Shown here: positions 6,155 through 61,396 of the stretch, piece after piece
How the letters are laid out: each line of letters begins with the position of its first letter
How positions within the stretch are numbered: position 1 is the stretch's first letter
IMG/VR virus record: IMGVR_UViG_3300033412_000009
Location: 5,434-69,433 of that record
Length of the DNA stretch: 64,000 nt
Source: a virus
Taxonomy: Duplodnaviria > Caudoviricetes
Strand: one strand, 5' to 3'
Notes under the pieces: model-generated
Told to the model about the DNA's origin: nothing
The model's database searches: none
The model's input: only the letters and a program-made list of their open reading frames with translations
Position numbers and translations under genes: made by a program

Positions 6155-6713
6155 AGGGCTTCTCCAAGATCGCGTGGCCCTCCCAACCGTTGAGGACCGT
6201 CCACCCCGGACGATCGTCCAGGCCGTCGGCATGGTAGGTGCCGAGCGGCGCCCAGGTCTTGATCCCGTAGTCCGCGTTGGGCTTGAACGGCCCCTCGCAG
6301 AAGTACAGGAGCGACTCCGGGAACCACCACTGGCTCACGTGGGTCGGATCGGCGATCGGCTGCCAGCCGATGTGGTTCTTCATCGGCTCGCCGGTGGTCG
6401 GGTCCGTGTAGCCGACGAGGGGCAGGACGATCGTGAAAGTACCGCCGGGACGAAGAACGCGCCAGGCTTCGTTGAAGACGTCGATCCGGGGCTGCCCGGA
6501 GGGGATGTGCTCCAGGAAGTGGGAGCAGTAGACCTCGTCGGCCACCTCCTGGTTCAGGTAGGAGGCGTGCGTCGGGTCGTTCGGCACCGGATTGAACGCC
6601 TGCCACGGCGTCACGGCCGCATCCTGCGCCGGAGACCGCCTCGGATGGTGCAGGTCGATGATGTAGTCCGCTCGTGGGTGTGGTTTGGTCCCTCCACCCA
6701 GTTCTATGAGCAC
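6111..6713 (-). CDS. Class I SAM-dependent methyltransferase (probably sugar O-methylation)
   Basis: IELGGG, SHFLEHI, NEAWRVLRPGG, ADPTH motifs. Confidence 0.8.
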   Translation of the reverse strand: MLIELGGGTKPHPRADYIIDLHHPRRSPAQDAAVTPWQAFNPVPNDPTHASYLNQEVADEVYCSHFLEHIPSGQPRIDVFNEAWRVLRPGGTFTIVLPLVGYTDPTTGEPMKNHIGWQPIADPTHVSQWWFPESLLYFCEGPFKPNADYGIKTWAPLGTYHADGLDDRPGWTVLNGWEGHAILEKPYESSGRDRRGRVHR

Positions 6714-7771
6714 ACCGACTCCCAAGCCTCGATCCAGCGGCCCGCTTGGGCCTCAATCGTGCGAGATTCCATCATTTCGCGGTTCCTACCCCCGATTTCG
6801 GCCCTCATTTCGGCATTTGAGAGCAGATTGGACAGGAAAGCGACCCATTGGGCCGGTTTGCGGGCCAAATAGCCCATCAGGCCCTCCGAATGGGCCGAAA
6901 TGTACGGATCTGTGGGCGAAGCGACGTAAGGAAGGCCCACAGCGGCGTATTCGAGCCCTTTGAGGGCAGATTTGGCCTGATTGAAGGCTGTCATGGCCAA
7001 CGGGACGATTCCGACGTCCATATTGGCCGTGAAGTGGGCGTAGACGTCGATCGGAGCGTATGGATCGCTCTGAATCGCCGATTCCGGGATCGAAGCGGCC
7101 TTTGCGACCCCTCCAGGGCCCCCAACGACGTAGAAATGGGCGTCAAATCGCCTCAGAACGGTCGAAAGAGCCCCTCTCATGACCTGCAAATCGTCCGGAT
7201 GGGTGCCAACTTGGCCCATCCAGCCCACTCTGAGGCCCTCCCAGGACTCTGTCGGAGCGGCCGACAAATGGCCCTCTGGGACGAAATTCGGGAGGATCTT
7301 GACCCTTCCGTGGCCTCCGTAGCGCTTCGCGAGGGCCGGAGTGGTCACCGTGACCAGATCTGCGAGCTGAGTGCTCTCTTTCAGCCATTCGCGGTTCGCC
7401 CAGCGGCTCTGGAGGGGGTTGGAGTGCGGATAGGCGACATTTCGGGTCGAGATCGTGTCGAAGTCGTCGTCAACCTCGACGATCACCTTCACTCCGTGGG
7501 CCTGGTAGAGCGGAATCGACTGGGTCTGCCGGTGATCGAGGGCGCGCTGGATGACCAACACGTCGCATTCGGGCTTCACGACGGCCATGATCTTGTGGAA
7601 GCCGTTCGTCATCACGGCCTCGGTGGCGGTGAGGGCCGCCCTGTTCTCTTCGCCGGGCATCAGCAGCTCGACGTCGGCGCCCATCGCCTTGGCCGCGAGG
7701 GCGGGGTAGATCATCCTCATGTAGCCGCATCCCGCCGTGTCGGTGGGCACGACCCAGATCTTGGGCCTCAC
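6704..7771 (-). CDS. Glycosyltransferase, GT4-like/GT-B fold
   Basis: AGCGYMRMIYP, EVDDDF, ADLVTVTTPALA, VGWMG, NQAKSALKGLEYAAVGLPYVAS. Confidence 0.85.
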   Translation of the reverse strand: MRPKIWVVPTDTAGCGYMRMIYPALAAKAMGADVELLMPGEENRAALTATEAVMTNGFHKIMAVVKPECDVLVIQRALDHRQTQSIPLYQAHGVKVIVEVDDDFDTISTRNVAYPHSNPLQSRWANREWLKESTQLADLVTVTTPALAKRYGGHGRVKILPNFVPEGHLSAAPTESWEGLRVGWMGQVGTHPDDLQVMRGALSTVLRRFDAHFYVVGGPGGVAKAASIPESAIQSDPYAPIDVYAHFTANMDVGIVPLAMTAFNQAKSALKGLEYAAVGLPYVASPTDPYISAHSEGLMGYLARKPAQWVAFLSNLLSNAEMRAEIGGRNREMMESRTIEAQAGRWIEAWESVCS

Positions 7772-9145: not shown

Positions 9146-9475
9146 TCATGAGTGTCGGGTCAGCATGAGCCCGACTTCGCGGGCCCAGCGTGGGTGGTCG
9201 TGGACGAACTTGTGGTGGCGGTCGCAGAGGCAGCGAAGGTTGGCTGGGTCGTTGGAGATCTCGGGGTGGTTCAGATTGCGGCCTCTGGCGTGGTGGCCGA
9301 CCAGCCGCCCCCGACAGTCTCTGATCTCGGCGTAGGGGACTGGAACGAGATTGCCCCACGCATGGACCTCGAACTCGCAGCCTCGGGCGAGGACGGACGG
9401 CAGGATCCGCGCGTACATCTCGTCGAAGATCCGCTTGCGCCTCGTCGGCGTCGACTTGATAGGCACCCGCTCCAT
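9146..9475 (-). CDS. HNH endonuclease
   Basis: GHHARGRNLNHPEISNDPANLRCLCDRHHKFVH. Confidence 0.8.
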   Translation of the reverse strand: MERVPIKSTPTRRKRIFDEMYARILPSVLARGCEFEVHAWGNLVPVPYAEIRDCRGRLVGHHARGRNLNHPEISNDPANLRCLCDRHHKFVHDHPRWAREVGLMLTRHS

Positions 9476-9780
9476 CAGAGGGTCCGAGGGTCCGCCCCGT
9501 GGAGGACGTCCACGATCCAGTCGCCGATGTCCTCGGCCTTCACGATCTCCTGGTACATCAACGGAACGTCGGGGTGGGTCAGCTCGAAGCTGACCTGGTA
9601 GCCCGCGGCGACGACGTCGGAGGTCTCCTCCTGGAACGCCTCGTTCCAGCCGTACTTGTAGGGCAGCTCGATCGTCGTCGGTCGAGGGCCGGTGGTGGCC
9701 ACGATGTGCCCCTCGACGAGCTGGAGGATGATCGTCGGGGCCCGGCGGCCGGGCTGCGGGTCGATCAGGTAGTCGGACAT
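9475..9780 (-). CDS. Hypothetical protein, first gene of the leftward operon
   Basis: ATG 7 nt downstream of TATACT (9788-9793). Confidence 0.7.
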   Translation of the reverse strand: MSDYLIDPQPGRRAPTIILQLVEGHIVATTGPRPTTIELPYKYGWNEAFQEETSDVVAAGYQVSFELTHPDVPLMYQEIVKAEDIGDWIVDVLHGADPRTL

Positions 9781-9787
9781 GTAGACA

Positions 9788-9793
9788 AGTATA
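9788..9793 (-). promoter_or_regulatory. -10 box of the leftward glycosylation/methylation operon (leaderless)
   Basis: TATACT 7 nt before ATG 9780, in the divergent intergenic region. Confidence 0.6.
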
Positions 9794-9826
9794 CAGGATC
9801 CGCTAGGATGACCGCTACCCCCTCTA

Positions 9827-9877
9827 CTCAGAGAGGCCCCCGCCGCCCGTCAAGATCGGCGGGGGCACACCTCTGAG
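9827..9877 (+). promoter_or_regulatory. Long hairpin in the leader of the replication operon
   Basis: ctcagag...gcccccgccg / cggcgggggc...ctctgag nested inverted repeat. Confidence 0.45.
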
Positions 9878-9923
9878 GAGCACCGGAGACACCCGGCGAG
9901 GGCCACCCTACAGGAGGAGCGAG

Positions 9924-10208
9924 ATGGATCACGACGACGCCGACGCCAGGGCCGTCCTGGACTGGATGAAGAAGAACGGCCGCTGGCAGAACTGGCGAGC
10001 CCTCGACGCGGCGGGCCGCCCGAAGGTCTACCGTCGCAAGGTCTGCGAGATCTCCCGGACCAAGGTTCGGGTCTCCCTGAACATCCCCGGGCCCCGCCTC
10101 GACGCGGCGCTCGCCTACCTCACTTCGGAGCGGCTCGTGAACCCGGTCGGCCGGACCCTCCCGATCTCGTCCTGCCAGGCCGTGGAGCTGTGGATGGTGA
10201 ACCCGTGA
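9924..10208 (+). CDS. Hypothetical protein, possible winged HTH
   Basis: Strong SD AGGAGGAG; 94 aa, basic. Confidence 0.65.
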   Translation: MDHDDADARAVLDWMKKNGRWQNWRALDAAGRPKVYRRKVCEISRTKVRVSLNIPGPRLDAALAYLTSERLVNPVGRTLPISSCQAVELWMVNP

Positions 10209-49070: not shown

Positions 49071-49855
49071 CACTCGCTCCCTTGCTCTGCCTTGTCCTGT
49101 GCGGCCCTGACTTCCAGCAGCCGGATCTCCTCGGCGAAGGCGTCGAGGTTGGCCTTGCCCCAGTCGTTGACCGTGGCGTAGCCCGCCTCGGTGGCGATCG
49201 AGCGGAGGGCCTCGACGTACTTCTCGTCCTGGTCCTTCAGCGACTTCGCCCGAGCCATCAGCGCCTTGTAGGCGTTGCTGCGCTCCTCGATCGCCTTCTC
49301 CTCGGCGAGGAGGCGCTCCAATTCCTCGTCGCTCGGCGGCTCCGGCACCTGAAGCTGGGGCTCCCGGTAGTTGTCGTTGCGGAACTGCTCCGCGTCTTCC
49401 GAGTGACCGCGGACCCACAGGTCCAGTGCCACGCCGAAGCGCATCGCCGCGTTCCTGAGCGCGTCACCGATCAGCACCTTCACGGCGTTGGGCTGGTTGG
49501 TGGCGCAGTCGCCGTAGCCGAGGCGGGTGACGCCATCGACGGTGAGCTTGATCCACAGGCCGATCGGCCGACCCTGTGGATCACGGTCGAACACGGGCAG
49601 GCCGTTCGCATCCTTGGCGAGGGGCTCCCAGGTCCACTTCGGGTCGACGTCGAGGAGCCGTGCGGTGACGGCACCGTGGCCGACGTACTGGAGCTGCACG
49701 CCCGCCTTGGGCAGGATCCCGACCTGGCTGGCCGGGAACGGGTCGCTCAGCTTCACCTTGCCGGTGTCGGCCACCGAGGCGAGCGCCTTGCGGGCTGCCG
49801 CCTGCGCCTTGGTGGGCGCGGTCGCCGGGGTGGTGGGTTCGTTGGTCTCGGTCAT
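49070..49855 (-). CDS. Rad52/Sak-like single-strand annealing protein
   Basis: LQYVGHGAVTARLLDVDPKWTW, LTVDGVTRLGYG, DALRNAAMRFGVALDLW. Confidence 0.85.
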   Translation of the reverse strand: MTETNEPTTPATAPTKAQAAARKALASVADTGKVKLSDPFPASQVGILPKAGVQLQYVGHGAVTARLLDVDPKWTWEPLAKDANGLPVFDRDPQGRPIGLWIKLTVDGVTRLGYGDCATNQPNAVKVLIGDALRNAAMRFGVALDLWVRGHSEDAEQFRNDNYREPQLQVPEPPSDEELERLLAEEKAIEERSNAYKALMARAKSLKDQDEKYVEALRSIATEAGYATVNDWGKANLDAFAEEIRLLEVRAAQDKAEQGSE

Positions 49856-50823
49856 AGAGCTTCTTCCTGTTCTGCTTGGGGCCAGACCTTCTCGCTGACC
49901 TTGATGACGTTGCGCTTGGTGATGTGGATCCGACGCGAGTTCGGGATGTCCTCGGTGTAGGTCTCCACCAGCTCGGGATGGTCGGCTAGCAGACGCTTCA
50001 CGTTCACGCCCCGGCTTGGCTTTGGAGCCTTGAACGAGACAACTTCCAACCCTCCGGCCATCCCGACCGAGTGGGAACCGAGCCAGCGGACAAGCTGATC
50101 CCGGGCCTCGCGCTTTGCTGCCTCCGCCTGCTTCATCTGCTCCGACGCCTCTTGGTAGGCGAGCAGCACCTCCATCGCGTGGGCGTCATCAGGGAGAGCG
50201 ACGGCTTGGCCGTCGTCCACCGGGTGGATCATCGCGATGTTGTCCGCCGACAGGTCGATCCCGCCCGGCACCTCACCGATGTGCAGCGCCGCCATCACGT
50301 CCTCGGCGCGGTTCATGATCCGCTCGAACTCGCGCTCATCGAACTCGACGTAGGCGATCTGCACTTCCAGCCGCCCGTCGAGGTAGGCGAAGATCGTCTC
50401 GCGCGACCCGTAGCAGCCCATCTGCGACTGCGCCTGGTACCACCAGTAGCGGGGCACCTCGGCCCCGACCCAATCGGTAGTGGACTTCACCTCCAGGTGC
50501 TGGTCGGGGTTGTCGATCTCGACGCCGTCGAGCGTGGCCAACATGCAGCCGTAGCCGTGGAGCACGAGCGGCTTCACGAACTGCTTCGACAGCATGTCCG
50601 AGGCCACGTCCATGATGTAGGGCTCCATCCTGGTGCCCCGCCGCATGGCGTCGTTCTCCTCGGTGCGGTGGCCGGTCAGCTTCTGAGCGCACACGTCGCC
50701 CAACGTCTCGAACGGGTGGACTCCGAACAGAGCGCCGGTCAGCGACGCGTTGAAGTAGGGGGATCGGAGATCCAGCCAGTCCTCGACGTCTGGCGGGTAG
50801 GGCAGCGTGAAGCGCTCGGCCAC
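49852..50823 (-). CDS. YqaJ/lambda-Exo-like recombination exonuclease
   Basis: WLDLR, MRRGTRMEP, ATLDG, LEVKS, YWWYQAQSQM. Confidence 0.9.
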   Translation of the reverse strand: MAERFTLPYPPDVEDWLDLRSPYFNASLTGALFGVHPFETLGDVCAQKLTGHRTEENDAMRRGTRMEPYIMDVASDMLSKQFVKPLVLHGYGCMLATLDGVEIDNPDQHLEVKSTTDWVGAEVPRYWWYQAQSQMGCYGSRETIFAYLDGRLEVQIAYVEFDEREFERIMNRAEDVMAALHIGEVPGGIDLSADNIAMIHPVDDGQAVALPDDAHAMEVLLAYQEASEQMKQAEAAKREARDQLVRWLGSHSVGMAGGLEVVSFKAPKPSRGVNVKRLLADHPELVETYTEDIPNSRRIHITKRNVIKVSEKVWPQAEQEEAL

Positions 50824-53075: not shown

Positions 53076-53077
53076 AG

Positions 53078-53150
53078 AGGGGTGGGCGGGAATCGAACCC
53101 GCATGACCTGCTTTGCAGGCAGGCGCCTTGCCCAACTCGGCCACCACCCC
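53078..53150 (-). tRNA. tRNA-Cys (GCA), CCA not encoded
   Basis: Acceptor GGGGTGG/CCACCCC, U73 discriminator, anticodon arm CCTGC-CTGCAAA-GCAGG, T arm GCGGG-TTCGATT-CCCGC. Confidence 0.95.
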
Positions 53151-53157
53151 CGGGCCG

Positions 53158-53610
53158 CTAGTACGTGGCCCAGGCTTGCCAGCCCTGCGCCTCGAAGACG
53201 AAGCGCGCGGCCAGCATGTTCGTCTCGGGGTCCAACAGGTCTCGGCGGTTGCAGGCGATGCCTGCTCGGCAGAGAGCTGGAACCCAGGTCCCGTGGATCT
53301 GCATGAGCCCCCAGTCGTCCGTCGGCCCGATGGCTTCGGGCTGGCAATGGGACTCACGAGGCATGATGACAGTCGAGATCGGCGAGCGCCACTCGGTGGG
53401 CGTGAACCCCGCAGAGATGGCGTCGTCGTACCACTCGGCGCACGGCCGCCCCTCGGTGGCATCGGCTCTGTCAGCCTCGTACTGGAGGGCCGCTTCCTTC
53501 GCTTCCGCCTCGTGGCCGTTCATCACGGCATCCACGTAGCGGAGGTACTGCGAAGTTGTGCAGCCCGTCAAGGCAAGGACGAGCCCCGCCGTCGCAACGA
53601 TGCGCTTCAT
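53158..53610 (-). CDS. Lipoprotein with lytic-transglycosylase (SLT/Rpf-like) domain
   Basis: LALTGC lipobox; RES...PEA...WGLMQI...LLDPETNMLAA...GWQAW. Confidence 0.85.
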   Translation of the reverse strand: MKRIVATAGLVLALTGCTTSQYLRYVDAVMNGHEAEAKEAALQYEADRADATEGRPCAEWYDDAISAGFTPTEWRSPISTVIMPRESHCQPEAIGPTDDWGLMQIHGTWVPALCRAGIACNRRDLLDPETNMLAARFVFEAQGWQAWATY

Positions 53611-55497: not shown

Positions 55498-55791
55498 TCA
55501 GGCCGGGGTCTGACCGGTGCGGGCAGCGTACGCCGCCACGCCCTCGGCCGAGGCGACGGCGACCGTGCCGTCGACCAGCTTGACCAGCACGGGCGACTCC
55601 GCCTTCAGGCTGTAGTCGTCCGCGCCGCCAGCCGGGCGGCGGCTGGCCTTGTTGTAGAAGCCGGACTTGCGGATGCGCCGCGAGCCGGGGACGGGCAGGG
55701 CGCCGCCGAGGGCGTCCAGCTCATCGGTGAAGTCCACCGTCTCGGCGATCGCCGGGACCGAGGACGTGGGCTTGCTGTAGGCCGTCTTCAT
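55498..55791 (-). CDS. Hypothetical protein
   Basis: MKTAYSKP...; SD AAGGAGG. Confidence 0.65.
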   Translation of the reverse strand: MKTAYSKPTSSVPAIAETVDFTDELDALGGALPVPGSRRIRKSGFYNKASRRPAGGADDYSLKAESPVLVKLVDGTVAVASAEGVAAYAARTGQTPA

Positions 55792-55904
55792 GACGGTCCT
55801 CCTTTGGGTGTAGCTGGTTGCTGTGTGGATCACCGCCGCGGCGGCGACTCGCGGCGCCAGCCCCCGCGAGTCCTTGTCCCCCTCGGTCGAGGGGGAGATC
55901 TTGC

Positions 55905-57011
55905 TCAGCCGCCGAGAGCGGCGAGCACCTTGTCGTGGCCGGGAACGGTGATGCCGTTGCGGACGTGCAGTCCACGCAACTCCGACCACTGATCGCCAGC
56001 CACCGACTGGTAGGTGGCCTGCTTGTCGAGGAGAGCGCCGAGGCGCTCATCCGCCGAGCCGAAGATCTCGATCGTGCGCTCCAACGTCAGCGGCCAGTCG
56101 GGCGAGAGCACGTGACGACGATGGTGCGCCTCTGTCCGCTGCGGGTTCGGGATGTATCCGCCGCCCGCCAGCAGCCAGAGCCGCCGTGCCCTCTCGTGCA
56201 GGTCATCGACCCACGCCCACTCCCGGAAGATCTCGGCGAACTGCTCCGCCACCTCCACCTTCGACAGCGCCACCGACAGCCGACAGGCCATCTCGGTGCG
56301 CCACGCCGCTCGGGAAGCGTTGAAGATCCGAACCTCGTAGAACCCGCCGTGTGCAGCTCGTGCCAGATCGGCGTGACGGTCCCAGCCCATCATCTCCATC
56401 TTCGTCTCGAACCCGCGCCGCCACTTCAGGTTGAAGGTCTTGGACTTCTCGCCGAGCATGTCTTCCATGCAGACGAGAGTGTCGCCCCACATCTCCCAGT
56501 CCTGGTGCTGCATCATCATGAGCAGCGCTGAGACTCGCTCGTTGTTGCCACGCCGCTGCGCCCACACCGAGCCTGCGATGTACTCCCACAGGATCGGCTC
56601 CAGCGCCAGCCACGCCTCGGTCATCGTCTTCGACGGCGTCCAGTCGTCCGGCGGAAGGTGGTTCTGGCCCCGTACTTGCGGCGCCCAGCCGAGATGGACG
56701 TGCATCCCGCACATCATCGCCGTCGACGCGTCCACGTCGAGCGCCGCTTCCTGGAGCGCTTCCATCGCGTGGATGGCCCGCTCCCAGCCGCCGGGAGTGT
56801 CGAAGAACAGCCCCGAGATGATCTCGCCACCGCACGACGAATCCCGCTGCGCCCGGAACGTCACGTTCCAGATGTCCGAGCAGTCATCGCAGTCACAGTG
56901 GTAGCCGTGCAGGCGACCTTCCTGCCGTGCCAGGCCGCGTTCGGTGAGTTCACCGATCAGCGCCGGTACCTCGCTCATGAACTCGGCCTCGAATCCGAAT
57001 GATCTGGGCAT
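55905..57011 (-). CDS. Putative amidoligase (glutamine-synthetase-like COOH-NH2 ligase, Amidoligase_2 type), copy 1
   Basis: FGFEAEF, HCDCDDC, RDSSCGGEIIS, CGMHVHLG, RRGNN, YEVRIF. Confidence 0.85.
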   Translation of the reverse strand: MPRSFGFEAEFMSEVPALIGELTERGLARQEGRLHGYHCDCDDCSDIWNVTFRAQRDSSCGGEIISGLFFDTPGGWERAIHAMEALQEAALDVDASTAMMCGMHVHLGWAPQVRGQNHLPPDDWTPSKTMTEAWLALEPILWEYIAGSVWAQRRGNNERVSALLMMMQHQDWEMWGDTLVCMEDMLGEKSKTFNLKWRRGFETKMEMMGWDRHADLARAAHGGFYEVRIFNASRAAWRTEMACRLSVALSKVEVAEQFAEIFREWAWVDDLHERARRLWLLAGGGYIPNPQRTEAHHRRHVLSPDWPLTLERTIEIFGSADERLGALLDKQATYQSVAGDQWSELRGLHVRNGITVPGHDKVLAALGG

Positions 57012-57850
57012 CAGACCTCCTCATCTTCGTAGTCGTAGTCGTCGGTGTAGTCGTCGTCGTCGGGCGGGTCGTCTTCGTCGCCGTCGGGCAGCCCGTCGGC
57101 CCAGGACAAATCGGGCGGTGGATGGATGCGGCCCGAGATGTTGAGGCGGGCCGCTGCCATTCGCTGCACCTCGTCGTAGGACACCCGCAGCGACTCCCGC
57201 AAGGTCGGTGTCGCCGCCGTGTTGCTGTACTGGAGGGTGTAGTTCTCGTCGTTGACGGCGTACCACTGGGCGTTGGTTCTGGTCGACGACGCCCGAGGCA
57301 TCGGAGGCGGAGGCGCGATCGACGCCGTCAGGAAGTCGTCACGCAGCCTCGCCCAGTAGCGATCCGGCGTGTAGAACCTCAGCCCGGTGTCGGTCTTCGC
57401 GCATGGCCGGTAGCCCCACTCCATCGACGCCACCTCCTCCAGCGAGGAGTTCGGCGACATCGGGATCACGTGAGGCGTGTCTTCCATGTCGTGGAGGAAC
57501 GGCTCCAACTGCTGCTCCAGGAAGACGGAGAAGTCGTGTTCGAGCAGCGGCAGCATGAAGACCTGCGGAGCAGGACGGCGGTCGGTCGGATCGAGCGCCA
57601 CCGCCAACGCCTTGTCGCCGCCGACACGCACCTCGATCAGATCGTCGAACACGATCGGCTCCCGATCCCACAGCGCCCGACCAGGGAGTCTCTCGTGGAT
57701 CCTGATCCGTCCCAGCGCGTCCTCGATGGTGAGGGCGCACGCGTACGCGTTGAGCCCGCCCCACTCGTCGTGGGCGTTGGCCAGTTCCCGCAGACGCATC
57801 AGCGCCCGCTGTACGTGGGACTTCTCGTTGTCTTCCACCAGCCTTGCCAT
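57011..57850 (-). CDS. Hypothetical protein with acidic C-terminal tail, inside the amidoligase operon
   Basis: TGATG-coupled on both sides; ends PDGDEDDPPDDDDYTDDYDYEDEEV. Confidence 0.75.
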   Translation of the reverse strand: MARLVEDNEKSHVQRALMRLRELANAHDEWGGLNAYACALTIEDALGRIRIHERLPGRALWDREPIVFDDLIEVRVGGDKALAVALDPTDRRPAPQVFMLPLLEHDFSVFLEQQLEPFLHDMEDTPHVIPMSPNSSLEEVASMEWGYRPCAKTDTGLRFYTPDRYWARLRDDFLTASIAPPPPMPRASSTRTNAQWYAVNDENYTLQYSNTAATPTLRESLRVSYDEVQRMAAARLNISGRIHPPPDLSWADGLPDGDEDDPPDDDDYTDDYDYEDEEV

Positions 57851-59253
57851 CAGTTCACCTCCACTGACGAGACGTCGATGATCCCGTCGTCCTCATCCCA
57901 CTGGCAGTCCCGCGGCAGGACCAGCTCGCCGCCCTGGTTGACCCACTGTTCGATCTCCATGCCCGACTTGTAGGCCAGGATCAGCGCGTCGGCGAGGTCG
58001 TCCTTCTCGTCCTCCTCTGCCGCGACGAGCGCCTCCCAGTACTGCTCTCCTCGCTCGCTGTGGTCGTTGAGGATCGCCTCGACGTCTGCGTCGTTGACGT
58101 CGTCGTCGTCCGGAACCATCGCTGCTGCGTCGAGAGCGAAGGCGCCCTTCGTGGGGATCTTGTCCGGCTCGTCCCGCCACACATGCAACGGATAGATCCG
58201 CTTGGTGGGCAGCACCACCTCATCGGAGCAGCCCTTGTCGAACCACATCTCGATGAAGGACATCCCGCTCTTGTAGGAGGCCGCCTTGAACGTGCCGATC
58301 AGATCGCAGAACTCGGGATCGTCCGGGACGAACACGACGGCGTCGTCGGGCTTCAGCACATAGCCGCCACCACCGATCACCCACGACGTGTCTTGGCGCG
58401 CTTTGCTCGACGTCGAGCCCTGCGTTCCAGTCGCCGCCGGAGCTTTGGAGTCAGAAGCTCGACGAAACCCGCCAGCAGTCCAGCTCCCACCCCGGGAGTA
58501 GTCCCAGGCGTCAACGCTCCCGTAGCTGGAGATGTAGATCTTCTCCGGTGGCTTGAACTCGGTGATCTGGTGCTCCAGGACGCCTTCGGCCGTGTGGACG
58601 AAGCGCAGCATGGCGCCTTCCTTGATGGCGTCGATCGTGATGGAGCCGGGGAACAGCACCGCCGCCTTCGCCACCGCAGCGTTCGTCGAGGCGAAGATGA
58701 CCGAGCCGCCCTCGGTGATGCCGACGTTCAGTGGCGACGACGTGTGCCGTGCCATCCACAGAGCGCCGGGATCGGACTTGTCGATCCACGCCACCGCGAT
58801 CGACCCTTCGAGTTCCTCCAGGGCGACCTTCGCCCCGAGATGGTTGATGGCGGCGAAGATCGCCTCCGAGTCCACCTTCCCGACCCGGGTCCAGCCGTAC
58901 TTGCGGTACAGCTCGTAGTCGTTGGAGACGCACCCATTGTGGACGCCGATGATGTTGTCGCACACGATCGGGTGGTTGTTGACGTTGTCCTTCGGGTCGC
59001 CCTGCGTCGAAAGTCTGCTGTGAGCGATCACCAGCCGACAGCCAGCGCCGATCCCTGGATGCGTTGCCAGGAACTGCGATGCAGGCACCGGGTACTTCGC
59101 GAGACGCACCCGATTCGAGGCCGTGACCCGAGCGATGCCCGTCGCCTCCTTGCCTCGCTGCTCCATCTCCCGCATCAGGATCGCCATCACTTCGTCGACC
59201 TCGATGCGGGCGAGGTCCGAGGGAGAGACAAGCACTCCCGAGATCCCGCACAT
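57850..59253 (-). CDS. Class II (Ntn) glutamine amidotransferase
   Basis: MCGISG (N-terminal Cys), RGKEATG, HSRLSTQG, NNHP, HNG, VDSEAI. Confidence 0.92.
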   Translation of the reverse strand: MCGISGVLVSPSDLARIEVDEVMAILMREMEQRGKEATGIARVTASNRVRLAKYPVPASQFLATHPGIGAGCRLVIAHSRLSTQGDPKDNVNNHPIVCDNIIGVHNGCVSNDYELYRKYGWTRVGKVDSEAIFAAINHLGAKVALEELEGSIAVAWIDKSDPGALWMARHTSSPLNVGITEGGSVIFASTNAAVAKAAVLFPGSITIDAIKEGAMLRFVHTAEGVLEHQITEFKPPEKIYISSYGSVDAWDYSRGGSWTAGGFRRASDSKAPAATGTQGSTSSKARQDTSWVIGGGGYVLKPDDAVVFVPDDPEFCDLIGTFKAASYKSGMSFIEMWFDKGCSDEVVLPTKRIYPLHVWRDEPDKIPTKGAFALDAAAMVPDDDDVNDADVEAILNDHSERGEQYWEALVAAEEDEKDDLADALILAYKSGMEIEQWVNQGGELVLPRDCQWDEDDGIIDVSSVEVN

Positions 59254-59275
59254 GCGGGCCTCCTTTCTGTTGTGT

Positions 59276-60148
59276 TCAGGCCGCGACCAGCTCGGCGGCC
59301 AGCCTGGCGGACGGCTTGTCCGCCCAGATCTCCTTGATGAGCCCCACGACGCGCTTGCGCTCGATCAGCGCCCGCCCCGAGATGTACTCGTAGGCGTTGA
59401 TCGCACGGTCGAAGGTCGCCGTGTGGCTGTGCTCCTCGACGATCGCCAGCGCCCAGGCCATGAGCGCGGTCGAGATCGCCGGATGCGCCATCAGCCGCTG
59501 CGGATCGGCGGGCGTGTTCCACAGCCGGAACTCGACGGTGCCGTGCCCACGGTCCGAGATCCACTGACCGCCGAAGGTGCCGATCTCCTCGTTGGTGCGG
59601 TAGTCGCGGTAGGGCGAGTAGACGCAGACGCCGTTGTAGCTGCGGTGACGACCGCAGCCGCCGTCGGCGATCTGGCGCCACAGGTCGCTCTCCGAGGCGA
59701 ACAGCGACATCAGCGCGGCGTTCACCTTCGCCCGCATCTCCGGGATGGGCCACACCTCGCCCCAGCGATCCCGCTGGATGAACTGCTTGGGCCATCCGAC
59801 GTGGACGTGGTTGCCAGCCCCGTAGTCGCCGTCGGGCGTCCAGTCGAGCGTGGCGAGCAGGTCGGGGTACAGCGAGACGAGCTGGCGCATCTCCTGGCGA
59901 TCCCGGACCGACCGGGTCGACAGGATCCGGGAGACGAACTCCGCCGCCACCGAGGAATCGTCCTGGTAGGCGAGCAGCCCGTTCGTGCGGTCGTAGGCGC
60001 AGATCGGGCAGTCACAGTGCGCCTCGTGCCGTCCCCCGTCGTGCAGCGTCAGGCCGTTCCGGTACAGCAGCCGCCTGGCCGCCGTGGTCGAACCGGCGCC
60101 TGCGTTGCGCCCGACTTCCAGCTCGAAGCCGAACTTCAGTGCCTTCAT
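59276..60148 (-). CDS. Putative amidoligase, copy 2
   Basis: FGFELEV, HCDCPIC, DDSSVAAEFVS, AGNHVHVG, HRSYN, TVEFRLWN. Confidence 0.85.
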   Translation of the reverse strand: MKALKFGFELEVGRNAGAGSTTAARRLLYRNGLTLHDGGRHEAHCDCPICAYDRTNGLLAYQDDSSVAAEFVSRILSTRSVRDRQEMRQLVSLYPDLLATLDWTPDGDYGAGNHVHVGWPKQFIQRDRWGEVWPIPEMRAKVNAALMSLFASESDLWRQIADGGCGRHRSYNGVCVYSPYRDYRTNEEIGTFGGQWISDRGHGTVEFRLWNTPADPQRLMAHPAISTALMAWALAIVEEHSHTATFDRAINAYEYISGRALIERKRVVGLIKEIWADKPSARLAAELVAA

Positions 60149-60216
60149 CTTCACTCCTTCCGTTGATGGTGCGCTGCCGTCCACGCGTCGGACGGCAGCG
60201 GACCATCAATGAAGGG

Positions 60217-60843
60217 TCACTTCGTGGCGGGGATCACCCCCGGCACGGTCGCCACTGACACCGCTGGTGCGGTCGTGGTGGTCTCACCAGGGACGGTGGT
60301 CGCGGGGACCGTCGTCACCGGTGTCGTCGTCGTGGTGGTCGCTGGGACCGTGGCGCACACGTAGGGCGCGCCGACCCGACCACGGCTGTCGCCGTTGGCG
60401 GTGAACACGGCCTTGATGTCGATCTGGCCGCAGCCCGTGTTGAAGGTCAACACGACTGGACCGACCGACCCGGCCGGGAACGTGCCTGACACATCCGAGT
60501 CGACCATCAGGCCCTGACCCGACAGGCCCTCGTGCGCCACGACCCGGATCGGGAACGCAGCGGGAGCTGGCTTGTCGAGCGTGTAGGTCACCGTCGAACC
60601 CGCCCCACCGACGGGGACGTTCAACACGACCGTCACCGTGCGCTGCACCGTGCCGAACGTGAAGGTCTTCGAGTTGGTGCATGTCACCGGCGCGGGCTTC
60701 TGGTCCTGGTTGCCGCCACAGAGCGGGAGGCCCTGCAACGGTGTGACCACCTGCGCGGTGTCCGCCTTGCTGACTGACGCAACGCCGAGAGCGGCGACCG
60801 CCGCTACTGACGCCAGGCCGACCAGCACTGAACGTGTCTTCAT
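60217..60843 (-). CDS. Secreted protein with Thr-rich mucin-like tail
   Basis: Signal peptide MKTRSVLVGLASVAAVAALGVASVSKA; four Cys; TTTTTTPVTTVPATT tail ending VIPATK. Confidence 0.75.
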   Translation of the reverse strand: MKTRSVLVGLASVAAVAALGVASVSKADTAQVVTPLQGLPLCGGNQDQKPAPVTCTNSKTFTFGTVQRTVTVVLNVPVGGAGSTVTYTLDKPAPAAFPIRVVAHEGLSGQGLMVDSDVSGTFPAGSVGPVVLTFNTGCGQIDIKAVFTANGDSRGRVGAPYVCATVPATTTTTTPVTTVPATTVPGETTTTAPAVSVATVPGVIPATK

Positions 60844-60901
60844 GGTGCTCCTTCCTCGCGACCACACCGTGTGGCCTGCGATCCCCCAGTATGACTGGAG
60901 A

Positions 60902-61396
60902 TCAGACGACGCTGAGCAGCGCGGGGAGTCGCTTGCCCTGTCGCTGGCACTGGTCCCGGTACACCCGCCACGACGATCCGAGCGGTGTGAGCCGCGGGAT
61001 GAGGTGACGATCGCTCGGGAACACGTACATCCACGCCTTCACCGTGCGATCCCGCCCTCGCAGGACCGCCACCTCCTGGCGGAGGTAGTGCTGCGGGTGG
61101 CCTTCGACCCAGTCGAAGTCCTTCGTGACCTGACCGGCGTCGATGTCGCAGGACGGCCACAGCAGCTCGCCCATGATGAAGTGGTCCGGATCGGGATCGG
61201 GCACCGCGTACGGATACGGGGCCGCCGTGCCGGGCGCTTCGAGCCCGAACAGTTGGTATCCCGTCACGATCAGGTTCTGCTCGATCCGGTCGATTCGATC
61301 GTTCCAGATCGTGGCGTTGCCGAAGCCCGTCATCAGGGAGCCGTACACGAAGAACGGCATGATGCCCTGATGGTGGGGCGCTGGTTCGAGGATCAT
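60902..61396 (-). CDS. Gamma-glutamylcyclotransferase (GGCT/AIG2-like)
   Basis: FFVYGSLMTG, MGEL, DWVEGHPQHYLR, AWMY. Confidence 0.88.
   Translation of the reverse strand: MILEPAPHHQGIMPFFVYGSLMTGFGNATIWNDRIDRIEQNLIVTGYQLFGLEAPGTAAPYPYAVPDPDPDHFIMGELLWPSCDIDAGQVTKDFDWVEGHPQHYLRQEVAVLRGRDRTVKAWMYVFPSDRHLIPRLTPLGSSWRVYRDQCQRQGKRLPALLSVV

Follow-up and report, generated by a model that had tools for sequence, protein, structure and literature searches.

The six genes that fill positions 55905 to 61396 of the viral DNA analysed here raise the question of whether amide-forming ligases, a glutamine amidotransferase (GATase) and a gamma-glutamylcyclotransferase (GGCT), encoded side by side in a phage, constitute a system of their own or a variant of one that has already been described. 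The stretch that was analysed, which is referred to as the window, is the final 64 kb of a 69,433-base viral contig from IMG/VR that is ~95% complete according to CheckV. A first-pass annotation made from the letters of the window put this locus forward as its best candidate for an undescribed system. That proposal has to be withdrawn, since a cassette of this kind was described computationally in 2009, reportedly by Iyer, Abhiman, Burroughs and Aravind (Mol Biosyst 5:1636), and is annotated in hundreds of phages, with examples in those of Arthrobacter, Pseudomonas and Escherichia; the window carries a diverged, rearranged actinophage version of the cassette of phiEco32 and LUZ24. The amidoligase-GATase-GGCT cassette is among the most widespread phage gene sets that are still without a function after more than 15 years. 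What the window adds to it is a diverged actinophage branch which lies below Pfam detection and carries a Cys/His insert, a permuted gene order, an acidic-tailed protein with a predicted GNAT fold that lacks the coenzyme A (CoA) loop, and a predicted motif-to-motif contact between this protein and one of the ligases.

The locus is filled by six co-oriented open reading frames (ORFs) on the minus strand, all with coding-type GC content at third codon positions (0.85-0.92), as the first-pass annotation had it. In the order of transcription, they encode a gamma-glutamylamine cyclotransferase (GGACT), a secreted protein, an amidoligase designated AL2, a class II GATase, a GNAT-fold protein of 279 amino acids (aa) which is referred to as the partner, and a second amidoligase designated AL1. 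The last three genes are coupled by TGATG stop/start overlaps, which lie at 57850 between GATase and partner and at 57011 between partner and AL1 and had been recognized from the start. A scan for promoters and terminators returned none on the coding strand.

The identification of the two ligases, AL1 (A-type; 55905..57011, minus strand, 368 aa) and AL2 (the B-type paralogue; 59276..60148, minus strand, 290 aa), proceeds through their relatives, which were aligned separately for the AL1 family (alignment A1) and the AL2 family (A2). The most likely start of AL2 is the ATG at 60148, which has a ribosome-binding site, GGAAGGAG, and yields the length of 290 aa. The Pfam family Amidoligase_2 (PF12224) is matched by 23 of the 26 AL1 relatives (best E 3.2e-10) and by 5 of the 13 AL2 relatives (best 2.4e-4), whereas AL1 and AL2 themselves fall below the threshold, so that the membership of both follows by transitive homology and not directly. 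The two families are linked to each other by hhalign with a probability of 99.8%, and AL1 and AL2 are 30% identical across their first 115 residues. Motifs of the GxExE, HxH and ExR type, which serve metal and ATP binding, are invariant in A1 and present in AL1 as GFEAE, HVH and EVR, and in AL2 as E9/E11, H114/H116 and E206/R208, all invariant in A2. Both families also carry an invariant HxxHCxCxxC insert, a putative Zn knuckle, which reads HGYHCDCDDC in AL1 (56880..56909, minus strand; H35, H38, C39, C41, C44 and C60 invariant in A1) and HEAHCDCPIC in AL2 (59999..60028, minus strand; H44, C45, C47 and C50 invariant in A2); among phage amidoligases this insert is confined to one subclade, and it does not occur in LUZ24 gp16 or gp18 or in Salgado gp98. 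Among 58 ligases placed in a tree, those of the B-type form one clade with support 100/99, and the two types are therefore old paralogues that move as a pair.

The AlphaFold2 (AF2) model of AL1, which has a predicted local distance difference test score (pLDDT) of 90.1, places the protein in the catalytic fold of glutamine synthetase (GS) and glutamate-cysteine ligase (GCL). Its best match by VIA-align is the GCL structure 2gwc (Z 14.3, 256 residues aligned, root-mean-square deviation 3.9), followed by YbdK (12.7), Dop (11.1), GS (10.8) and PafA (10.4), while Foldseek matches it to YbdK at 4e-6; 1-naphthylamine GS and GmaS are also among its structural neighbours. AL2 would share the GS/GCL fold by way of the hhalign link to the AL1 family. 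AL1 and AL2 are thus real, very diverged Amidoligase_2/GS-fold ligases whose catalytic motifs are intact, and the original description of two Zn-motif amidoligases holds in the sense of GS-fold ligases with a metal-type Cys/His motif. Several searches returned nothing: the A1 profile found nothing better than E 0.1 among PDB sequences, no match among 50,697 GenBank phages was obtained for the cassette by megablast or for AL1 by tblastn, a search for related loci with the single AL1 sequence found none, and a scan of the genomes of 185,579 prokaryote species with A2 found no AL2 relative.

The remaining two enzymes pass Pfam directly, so that the profile check proposed with the first-pass annotation succeeds for them and, for the ligases, only by way of relatives. 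The GATase (57850..59253, minus strand, 467 aa) matches GATase_6 at 1.4e-19 (70.9 bits, cutoff 27) and GATase_7 at 1.9e-10 (41.3 bits, cutoff 25), and it begins with MCGIS, in which the nucleophile Cys directly follows the Met. In an alignment of 11 sequences (A4), Cys2, R33-G34, R80, HNG (105-107) and VDSE (127-130) are conserved, and the residues R33, G34, R80, N106, G107 and D128, which form the oxyanion and glutamine-binding sites, are invariant. NCBIfam matches are to the GlmS N-domain (5.5e-18), AsnB (2.6e-4) and EgtC (1e-3). On this sequence evidence the protein is a class II glutamine amidotransferase of the N-terminal nucleophile (Ntn), PurF type, as it had been called. Its catalytic domain comprises approximately residues 1-260, and the variable C-terminal extension (residues ~262-467, 57850-58470) is partly acidic and belongs to no known family. 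The same region of the GATase in other cassettes contains a different, beta-rich conserved block (G.WV...G.VV.LP..FP.G.Y).

The first gene of the cassette (60902..61396, minus strand, 164 aa) encodes a GGACT/AIG2-like gamma-glutamyl(amine) cyclotransferase, in agreement with the earlier assignment. It matches PF06094 at 1.5e-14 (55 bits, cutoff 22.8) and PHROG 2520 at 3e-13, and it has the YGSL pocket motif (VYGSLM) and a Glu in IMGELL which, from human GGACT, we take to be the catalytic residue. GGACT enzymes act on gamma-glutamylamines, and a gene for one is found in 10 related cassette loci.

That these genes stand together is not a matter of chance, because the association is conserved in other loci. 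A metagenome locus, L005, retains all six genes in identical order at ~45% identity. Ten further loci, of which one is from IMG/VR and nine are from metagenomes, have the order A-type ligase, GATase, GNAT, with the GATase and GNAT genes abutting or overlapping, GGACT upstream in 8 and a B-type ligase in 5. The Arthrobacter phages Salgado and Ottawa, whose annotation is that of SEA-PHAGES, encode a GGACT-like protein, an amidoligase and a GATase consecutively, and LUZ24 encodes a COOH-NH2 ligase (gp16), an amidoligase (gp18), a GATase (gp19), a RimK-like protein (gp21) and a GGCT (gp22). The co-occurrence that the first-pass annotation had asked about is therefore found in L005, in more than 10 further loci, in the Arthrobacter phages and in LUZ24; for the Logan/ENA homologues it is suggested only by the equal lengths of their longest contigs. 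The statement in that annotation that neighbourhoods of a similar kind had been predicted for phages resembling phiEco32, while no substrate was known to have been demonstrated, is likewise borne out by the LUZ24 annotation and by the passages of PMC10580990 that concern the cassette, according to which it was predicted by Iyer et al. 2009 and was unexplored as of 2023.

The partner (57011..57850, minus strand), which had been listed as an acidic-tailed unknown, retains the tail from that description and loses the unknown. Its AF2 model has a pLDDT of ~90 over a globular portion (residues 1-178), which is followed by a disordered linker, one helix and a predicted disordered acidic C-terminal tail (...DDDDYTDDYDYEDEEV; 57014..57094, minus strand). 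The top Foldseek matches of the model are all GNATs, with probabilities of 0.95-1.0 and the SpeG polyamine acetyltransferases as the best among them, and in a VIA-align comparison with 48,161 chains the top 50 rows are again all GNATs (Z 9.7-7.8, 125-151 residues aligned). As modelled, the partner has a GNAT fold, for which the order of elements is beta1-alpha1-alpha2-beta2-4-alpha3-beta5-alpha4-beta6-7; its sequence has no Pfam match even at E 10. The RxxGxG loop, of the general form Q/RxxGxG/A, that binds the CoA pyrophosphate between beta4 and alpha3 is missing both from the alignment of the partner family (A3, 12 members) and from the model, and the stretch after beta4 (WPL...D) has no glycines in 12 of 12 homologues, which suggests that the partner is a GNAT-fold protein that is probably non-catalytic. 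An origin as a dead amidoligase paralogue was considered and rejected, hhalign giving A3 against A1 a probability of 3%. The family is rare, with 10 representatives among 1.84 billion proteins, and in all 12 members of A3 the N-terminal half is globular and is followed by a linker that varies and by an acidic tail that ends in a run of E/D. An Atlas search yielded no usable match for the partner and, for the secreted protein, sub-threshold leads only.

The most conserved stretch of A3 is FDDLIEVRxGGD, which in the window is FDDLIEVRVGGD (residues 68-79; 57614..57649, minus strand), a loop that is predicted to serve as a docking element. It matches the invariant YDEETE(I/V)KxGG of the GNAT proteins in canonical cassettes, and ten related cassettes have a loop of this type in their GNAT partner. 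The pattern [FYW]D[DEP]xxE[VIL][KR]xGG is found a single time in every related cassette locus that extends as far as the GNAT gene, always within the GNAT partner, and it does not occur in the LUZ24 or Arthrobacter phages searched. With the alignment of GNAT partners as query, a protein homologue search returned two proteins, one of which was the first query sequence, and a scan of viral contigs returned only the contig of L004. Fold, position and this one motif make it probable that the partner is the equivalent of the canonical GNAT partner. One large branch of the cassette regularly includes a GNAT-fold protein. The L004 cassette contains two additional ORFs, of 277 aa (6286-7119) and 212 aa (9360-9998), neither of which belongs to a known family; the latter is situated between GATase and A-type ligase, which is the position of the partner in the window, and the L004 GNAT gene follows the ligase.

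Modelling of the ligase together with the acidic-tailed protein, two of the three components for which multimer modelling had been proposed at the outset, predicts a contact. The complex of AL1 and partner has an ipSAE of 0.83 (0.80-0.84 in three runs) and the best of three controls has 0.00. The same mark was attained by 58 of 80 solved complexes and by 2 of 110 mismatched pairs, counts that apply here only approximately because custom alignments were used for the prediction. At least 78% of contacts are common to the runs, and the pLDDT of the partner is at least 61. The confident interface lies between residues 68-76 of the partner and residues 233-237 together with 91, 97, 149, 334, 338 and 350-362 of AL1; on the partner side it consists entirely of the beta2-beta3 loop (residues 68-76) and does not include the tail. 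On the side of AL1 it involves the motif NASRAAWR (residues 231-238; 56298..56321, minus strand), a predicted docking surface directly after the catalytic ExR strand; this motif is invariant in the A-type ligases and different in the B-type ligases, with N231, R234, A236, W237 and R238 invariant in A1. Because the interface residues fall in both, two family-invariant motifs are predicted to meet. A solved structure of such a complex is not known to us, and it is therefore unlikely that the model passes on the strength of a memorised structure. The prediction supports binding of AL1 and partner, but does not show it. It offers a specific contact between two invariant motifs, NxxRxAWR of the ligase and D[DE]xxE[VI][KR]xGG of the partner, and if that contact is true, then the ligase functions in a complex with the partner and the GATase, and the partner loop marks the place where a substrate or a regulatory element meets the ligase.

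The reading towards which we lean, with some but by no means full confidence, is that of a known cassette, rearranged, in which ligase, GNAT partner and GATase form a complex for ATP- and glutamine-dependent amide formation and GGACT removes gamma-glutamyl groups. Gene identities, folds, catalytic motifs, conserved synteny and the predicted AL1-partner interface are established directly; from these, and from the chemistry of the families concerned, we infer the individual steps, the complex of three proteins and everything that relates to the substrate. AL1, the partner and the GATase would be made in a fixed ratio, because of the overlapping stop and start codons of their genes, and would act as one complex. 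The GATase would hydrolyse glutamine through its N-terminal Cys in order to release ammonia, AL1 with ATP would activate a carboxylate as an acyl phosphate, and the ammonia from the GATase, or else an amine, would attack the acyl phosphate to form the amide. The partner, its CoA loop lost, would use the conserved acidic loop to dock, or to present a substrate, beside the active-site strand of the ligase. AL2 would make a second amide bond, of the gamma-glutamyl type, and GGACT would remove gamma-glutamyl groups as 5-oxoproline. As for the substrate, our guess, which is held with slightly less than even conviction, is a small amine, a peptide or a cell-wall precursor rather than DNA; a protein is possible and is given clearly less weight, a nucleic acid is improbable, and what is left of this rough weighting falls to other substrates.

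Several points weigh against this reading. No functional study of any member of the cassette was found in the literature, and there is no known substrate, product or activity. AL1 scores 12.5 bits against PF12224 (E 0.13), below the cutoff of 22, and AL2 has no hit in a Pfam search. When the partner family is compared by hhalign with the GNAT partners of canonical cassettes, the probability is 4.5% over 27 columns, and because this profile comparison is weak, the two are probable counterparts whose homology is unproven. The AL1-partner score is a measure of model confidence obtained with custom alignments, and it covers that pair only. The putative role of the GATase as ammonia donor to the ligase, to whose gene its own is adjacent and translationally coupled, could instead be that of a gamma-glutamyl amidohydrolase. 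No ATP-grasp ligase is encoded in the six ORFs or in the ten that flank them, whereas LUZ24 has one in gp21; the cassettes of the Arthrobacter phages likewise lack it.

If the GATase were an amidohydrolase, then the genes could encode a cycle in which the ligases attach a gamma-glutamyl handle to an amine, such as a polyamine, the GATase-like protein hydrolyses an amide as EgtC does after EgtA, GGACT frees the amine together with 5-oxoproline, and the GNAT-fold protein binds the amine. Such a cycle would make sense of the weak match of the GATase to EgtC, of the presence among the structural neighbours of AL1 of two enzymes that gamma-glutamylate amines (1-naphthylamine GS and GmaS), of the textbook activity of GGACT enzymes on gamma-glutamylamines and of the rank of SpeG in the fold search with the partner, whose acidic tail could bind polyamines. 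We nevertheless regard it as unlikely, since the GATase is far nearer to the GlmS/AsnB type than to EgtC, the ranking of GNATs is unspecific, with dozens tied at VIA-align Z values of 8-9.7, and no polyamine enzyme is found among the nearby genes. The similarity of AL1 to Dop and PafA leads to another scheme, akin to pupylation, in which one ligase would attach and the other would trim or amidate a protein Glu carboxylate, the tail of the partner or its loop residue Glu73 would be the tag or first substrate, and GGACT would clear remnants of gamma-glutamyl-lysine. The pair of paralogous ligases recalls PafA and Dop, the E-rich acidic C-terminal tail is present in 12 of 12 partner homologues, the partner is predicted to bind AL1, and peptide tagging was proposed for such systems by Iyer et al. 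2009, as cited in the relevant part of PMC10580990. This scheme is distinctly unlikely given that the confident interface is made by the beta2-beta3 loop and not by the tail, that the ends of the tail vary (EEV, DEG, EEE, EYE) and include no GGQ or GGE, that canonical GNAT partners have no acidic tail, that GCL and YbdK are nearer structural neighbours than PafA and Dop, and that neither AL1 nor AL2 matches Pup_ligase in Pfam at E values up to 10.

The carboxylate that is modified could also belong to a peptidoglycan precursor (D-isoglutamate or meso-diaminopimelate), which would be amidated or extended while still in the cytoplasm and thereby defeat lysins or phages that arrive later, a form of superinfection exclusion. 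Glutamine-dependent carboxylate amidation is the textbook chemistry of MurT/GatD and LtsA, the cassette contains a secreted protein, a lipoprotein with an SLT domain is encoded 2.3 kb downstream, and modification of the cell wall is the interpretation given in the literature for phiEco32, as a 2009 proposal, in the pertinent passage of PMC10580990. We consider it very unlikely here, since domains of the Mur-ligase type and domains that bind lipid II are absent, the secreted protein occurs in no cassette beyond those of the window and L005, and the cassette sits among early and replication genes in LUZ24 and in the Arthrobacter phages. Equally little credence is given to the possibility that the partner is itself the dedicated first substrate of the ligases, with AL1/GATase and AL2 amidating or glutamylating the invariant E73 of the loop, or the conserved acidic tail, and GGACT trimming it; if true, it would amount to a self-contained phage switch for protein glutamylation or amidation built from a dead acetyltransferase, a functional analogue of Pup or of the modification of tubulin tails.

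The gene that separates GGACT from AL2 encodes a secreted protein (60217..60843, minus strand, 208 aa from the most likely start at 60843) with a signal peptide, the N-terminus MKTRSVLVGLASVAAVAALGVASVSKA and a Thr-rich C-terminus, which belongs to no Pfam, PHROG or NCBIfam family. A homologue is present at the same position in L005 (phmmer 6.9e-43) and in none of the other cassettes examined, and since it is common to the window and L005 only, the protein is taken to be a lineage-specific insert. A 163-aa ORF at 55498-55989 on the minus strand, for which no family was found, would share up to 85 nt with the 3' end of AL1 were translation to begin at its first GTG; a homologue at 11704-11994 of L005 makes it probable that the gene is genuine and starts further downstream.

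The window has a GC content of 66%, and the relatives of its portal protein, all below 30% identity, are found only in phages of Mycobacterium, Microbacterium and Gordonia and in other actinophages; its source is taken to be an uncultured soil actinophage. The structural genes are on the plus strand from ~9.9 to 48 kb, and the right arm, which runs from 64 to 48 kb on the minus strand, contains the cassette, a tRNA-Cys gene, the SLT-type lipoprotein and a YqaJ-like recombination exonuclease (49852-50823, minus strand; PF09588, 3.7e-07), on account of which the arm is read as an early/recombination region. The tRNA-Cys (GCA; 53077-53150, minus strand) is the sole tRNA of the window and lies 2.8 kb downstream of the cassette, beside the gene for the SLT/lysozyme-like lipoprotein (53158-53610, minus strand; SLT 6e-07, SLT_3 5.8e-06, lipobox LPAM_1 2e-04), which is placed among early genes, apart from the tail and lysis modules. 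DNA nearly identical to 55905-61396 (63-100% of sampled words) is present in sequencing runs of soil metagenomes that come from four studies (2019-2025), and two of these may be the source sample; the phage therefore recurs in soils. The runs listed are DNA from soil metagenomes, with no RNA sequencing run among them.

The cassette module extends to soil actinophages that are uncultured, in a form that has diverged beyond Pfam detection, and its relation to known systems can be stated in terms of what is retained and what is altered. With the phiEco32/LUZ24 type, it shares a paralogous pair of GS-fold ligases together with a class II GATase and a GGCT/GGACT, encoded on a single strand in an early region of the phage, as well as its restriction to phages; it differs in that it has no ATP-grasp ligase, has a GNAT-fold partner, has a permuted gene order with a secreted protein inserted, and has ligases that form a separate subclade with HxxHCxCxxC and without BLAST similarity to GenBank phages. 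LUZ24, phiEco32 and Arthrobacter phage Salgado, which can be cultured, are better suited than the window to settle the function of the cassette. The cassettes of the two Arthrobacter phages (Salgado gp97-99, Ottawa gp64-66) have the actinophage context in common with that of the window, and a GATase that is 32-41% identical over the catalytic domain, but they contain a single ligase without the Cys/His insert and a short GATase of ~295 aa, and both the GNAT partner and the docking-loop motif are missing from them.

Like the window, the uncultured loci L004, L006 and L008-L015 combine an A-type ligase with N[AS][TS]RxAWR and a B-type ligase with a GGACT, a GATase of the long form and a GNAT partner that carries the D[DE]xxE[VI][KR]xGG loop, but in the order B-type ligase, GGACT, A-type ligase, GATase, GNAT; in these loci the GNAT protein retains the CoA loop, RRxGxG, and lacks an acidic tail, whereas the type found in the window and L005 has lost the loop and gained the tail. 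PafA and Dop, which act with Pup, resemble the cassette in being a pair of GS-fold ligase paralogues that work on Glu/Gln carboxylates, with structural Z values of 10-11 to AL1, but the cassette has no Pup-like protein ending in GGQ or GGE and no match to Pup_ligase, its nearest structures are GCL and YbdK, and pupylation has no counterpart of its GATase and GGACT. In the AsnB/GlmS-type amidotransferases an Ntn Cys1 glutaminase similarly feeds ammonia to an ATP-using synthetase, with the difference that the synthetase of the cassette would be a separate GS-fold ligase instead of a fused PP-loop or SIS domain, and that ammonia channelling between the two is putative.

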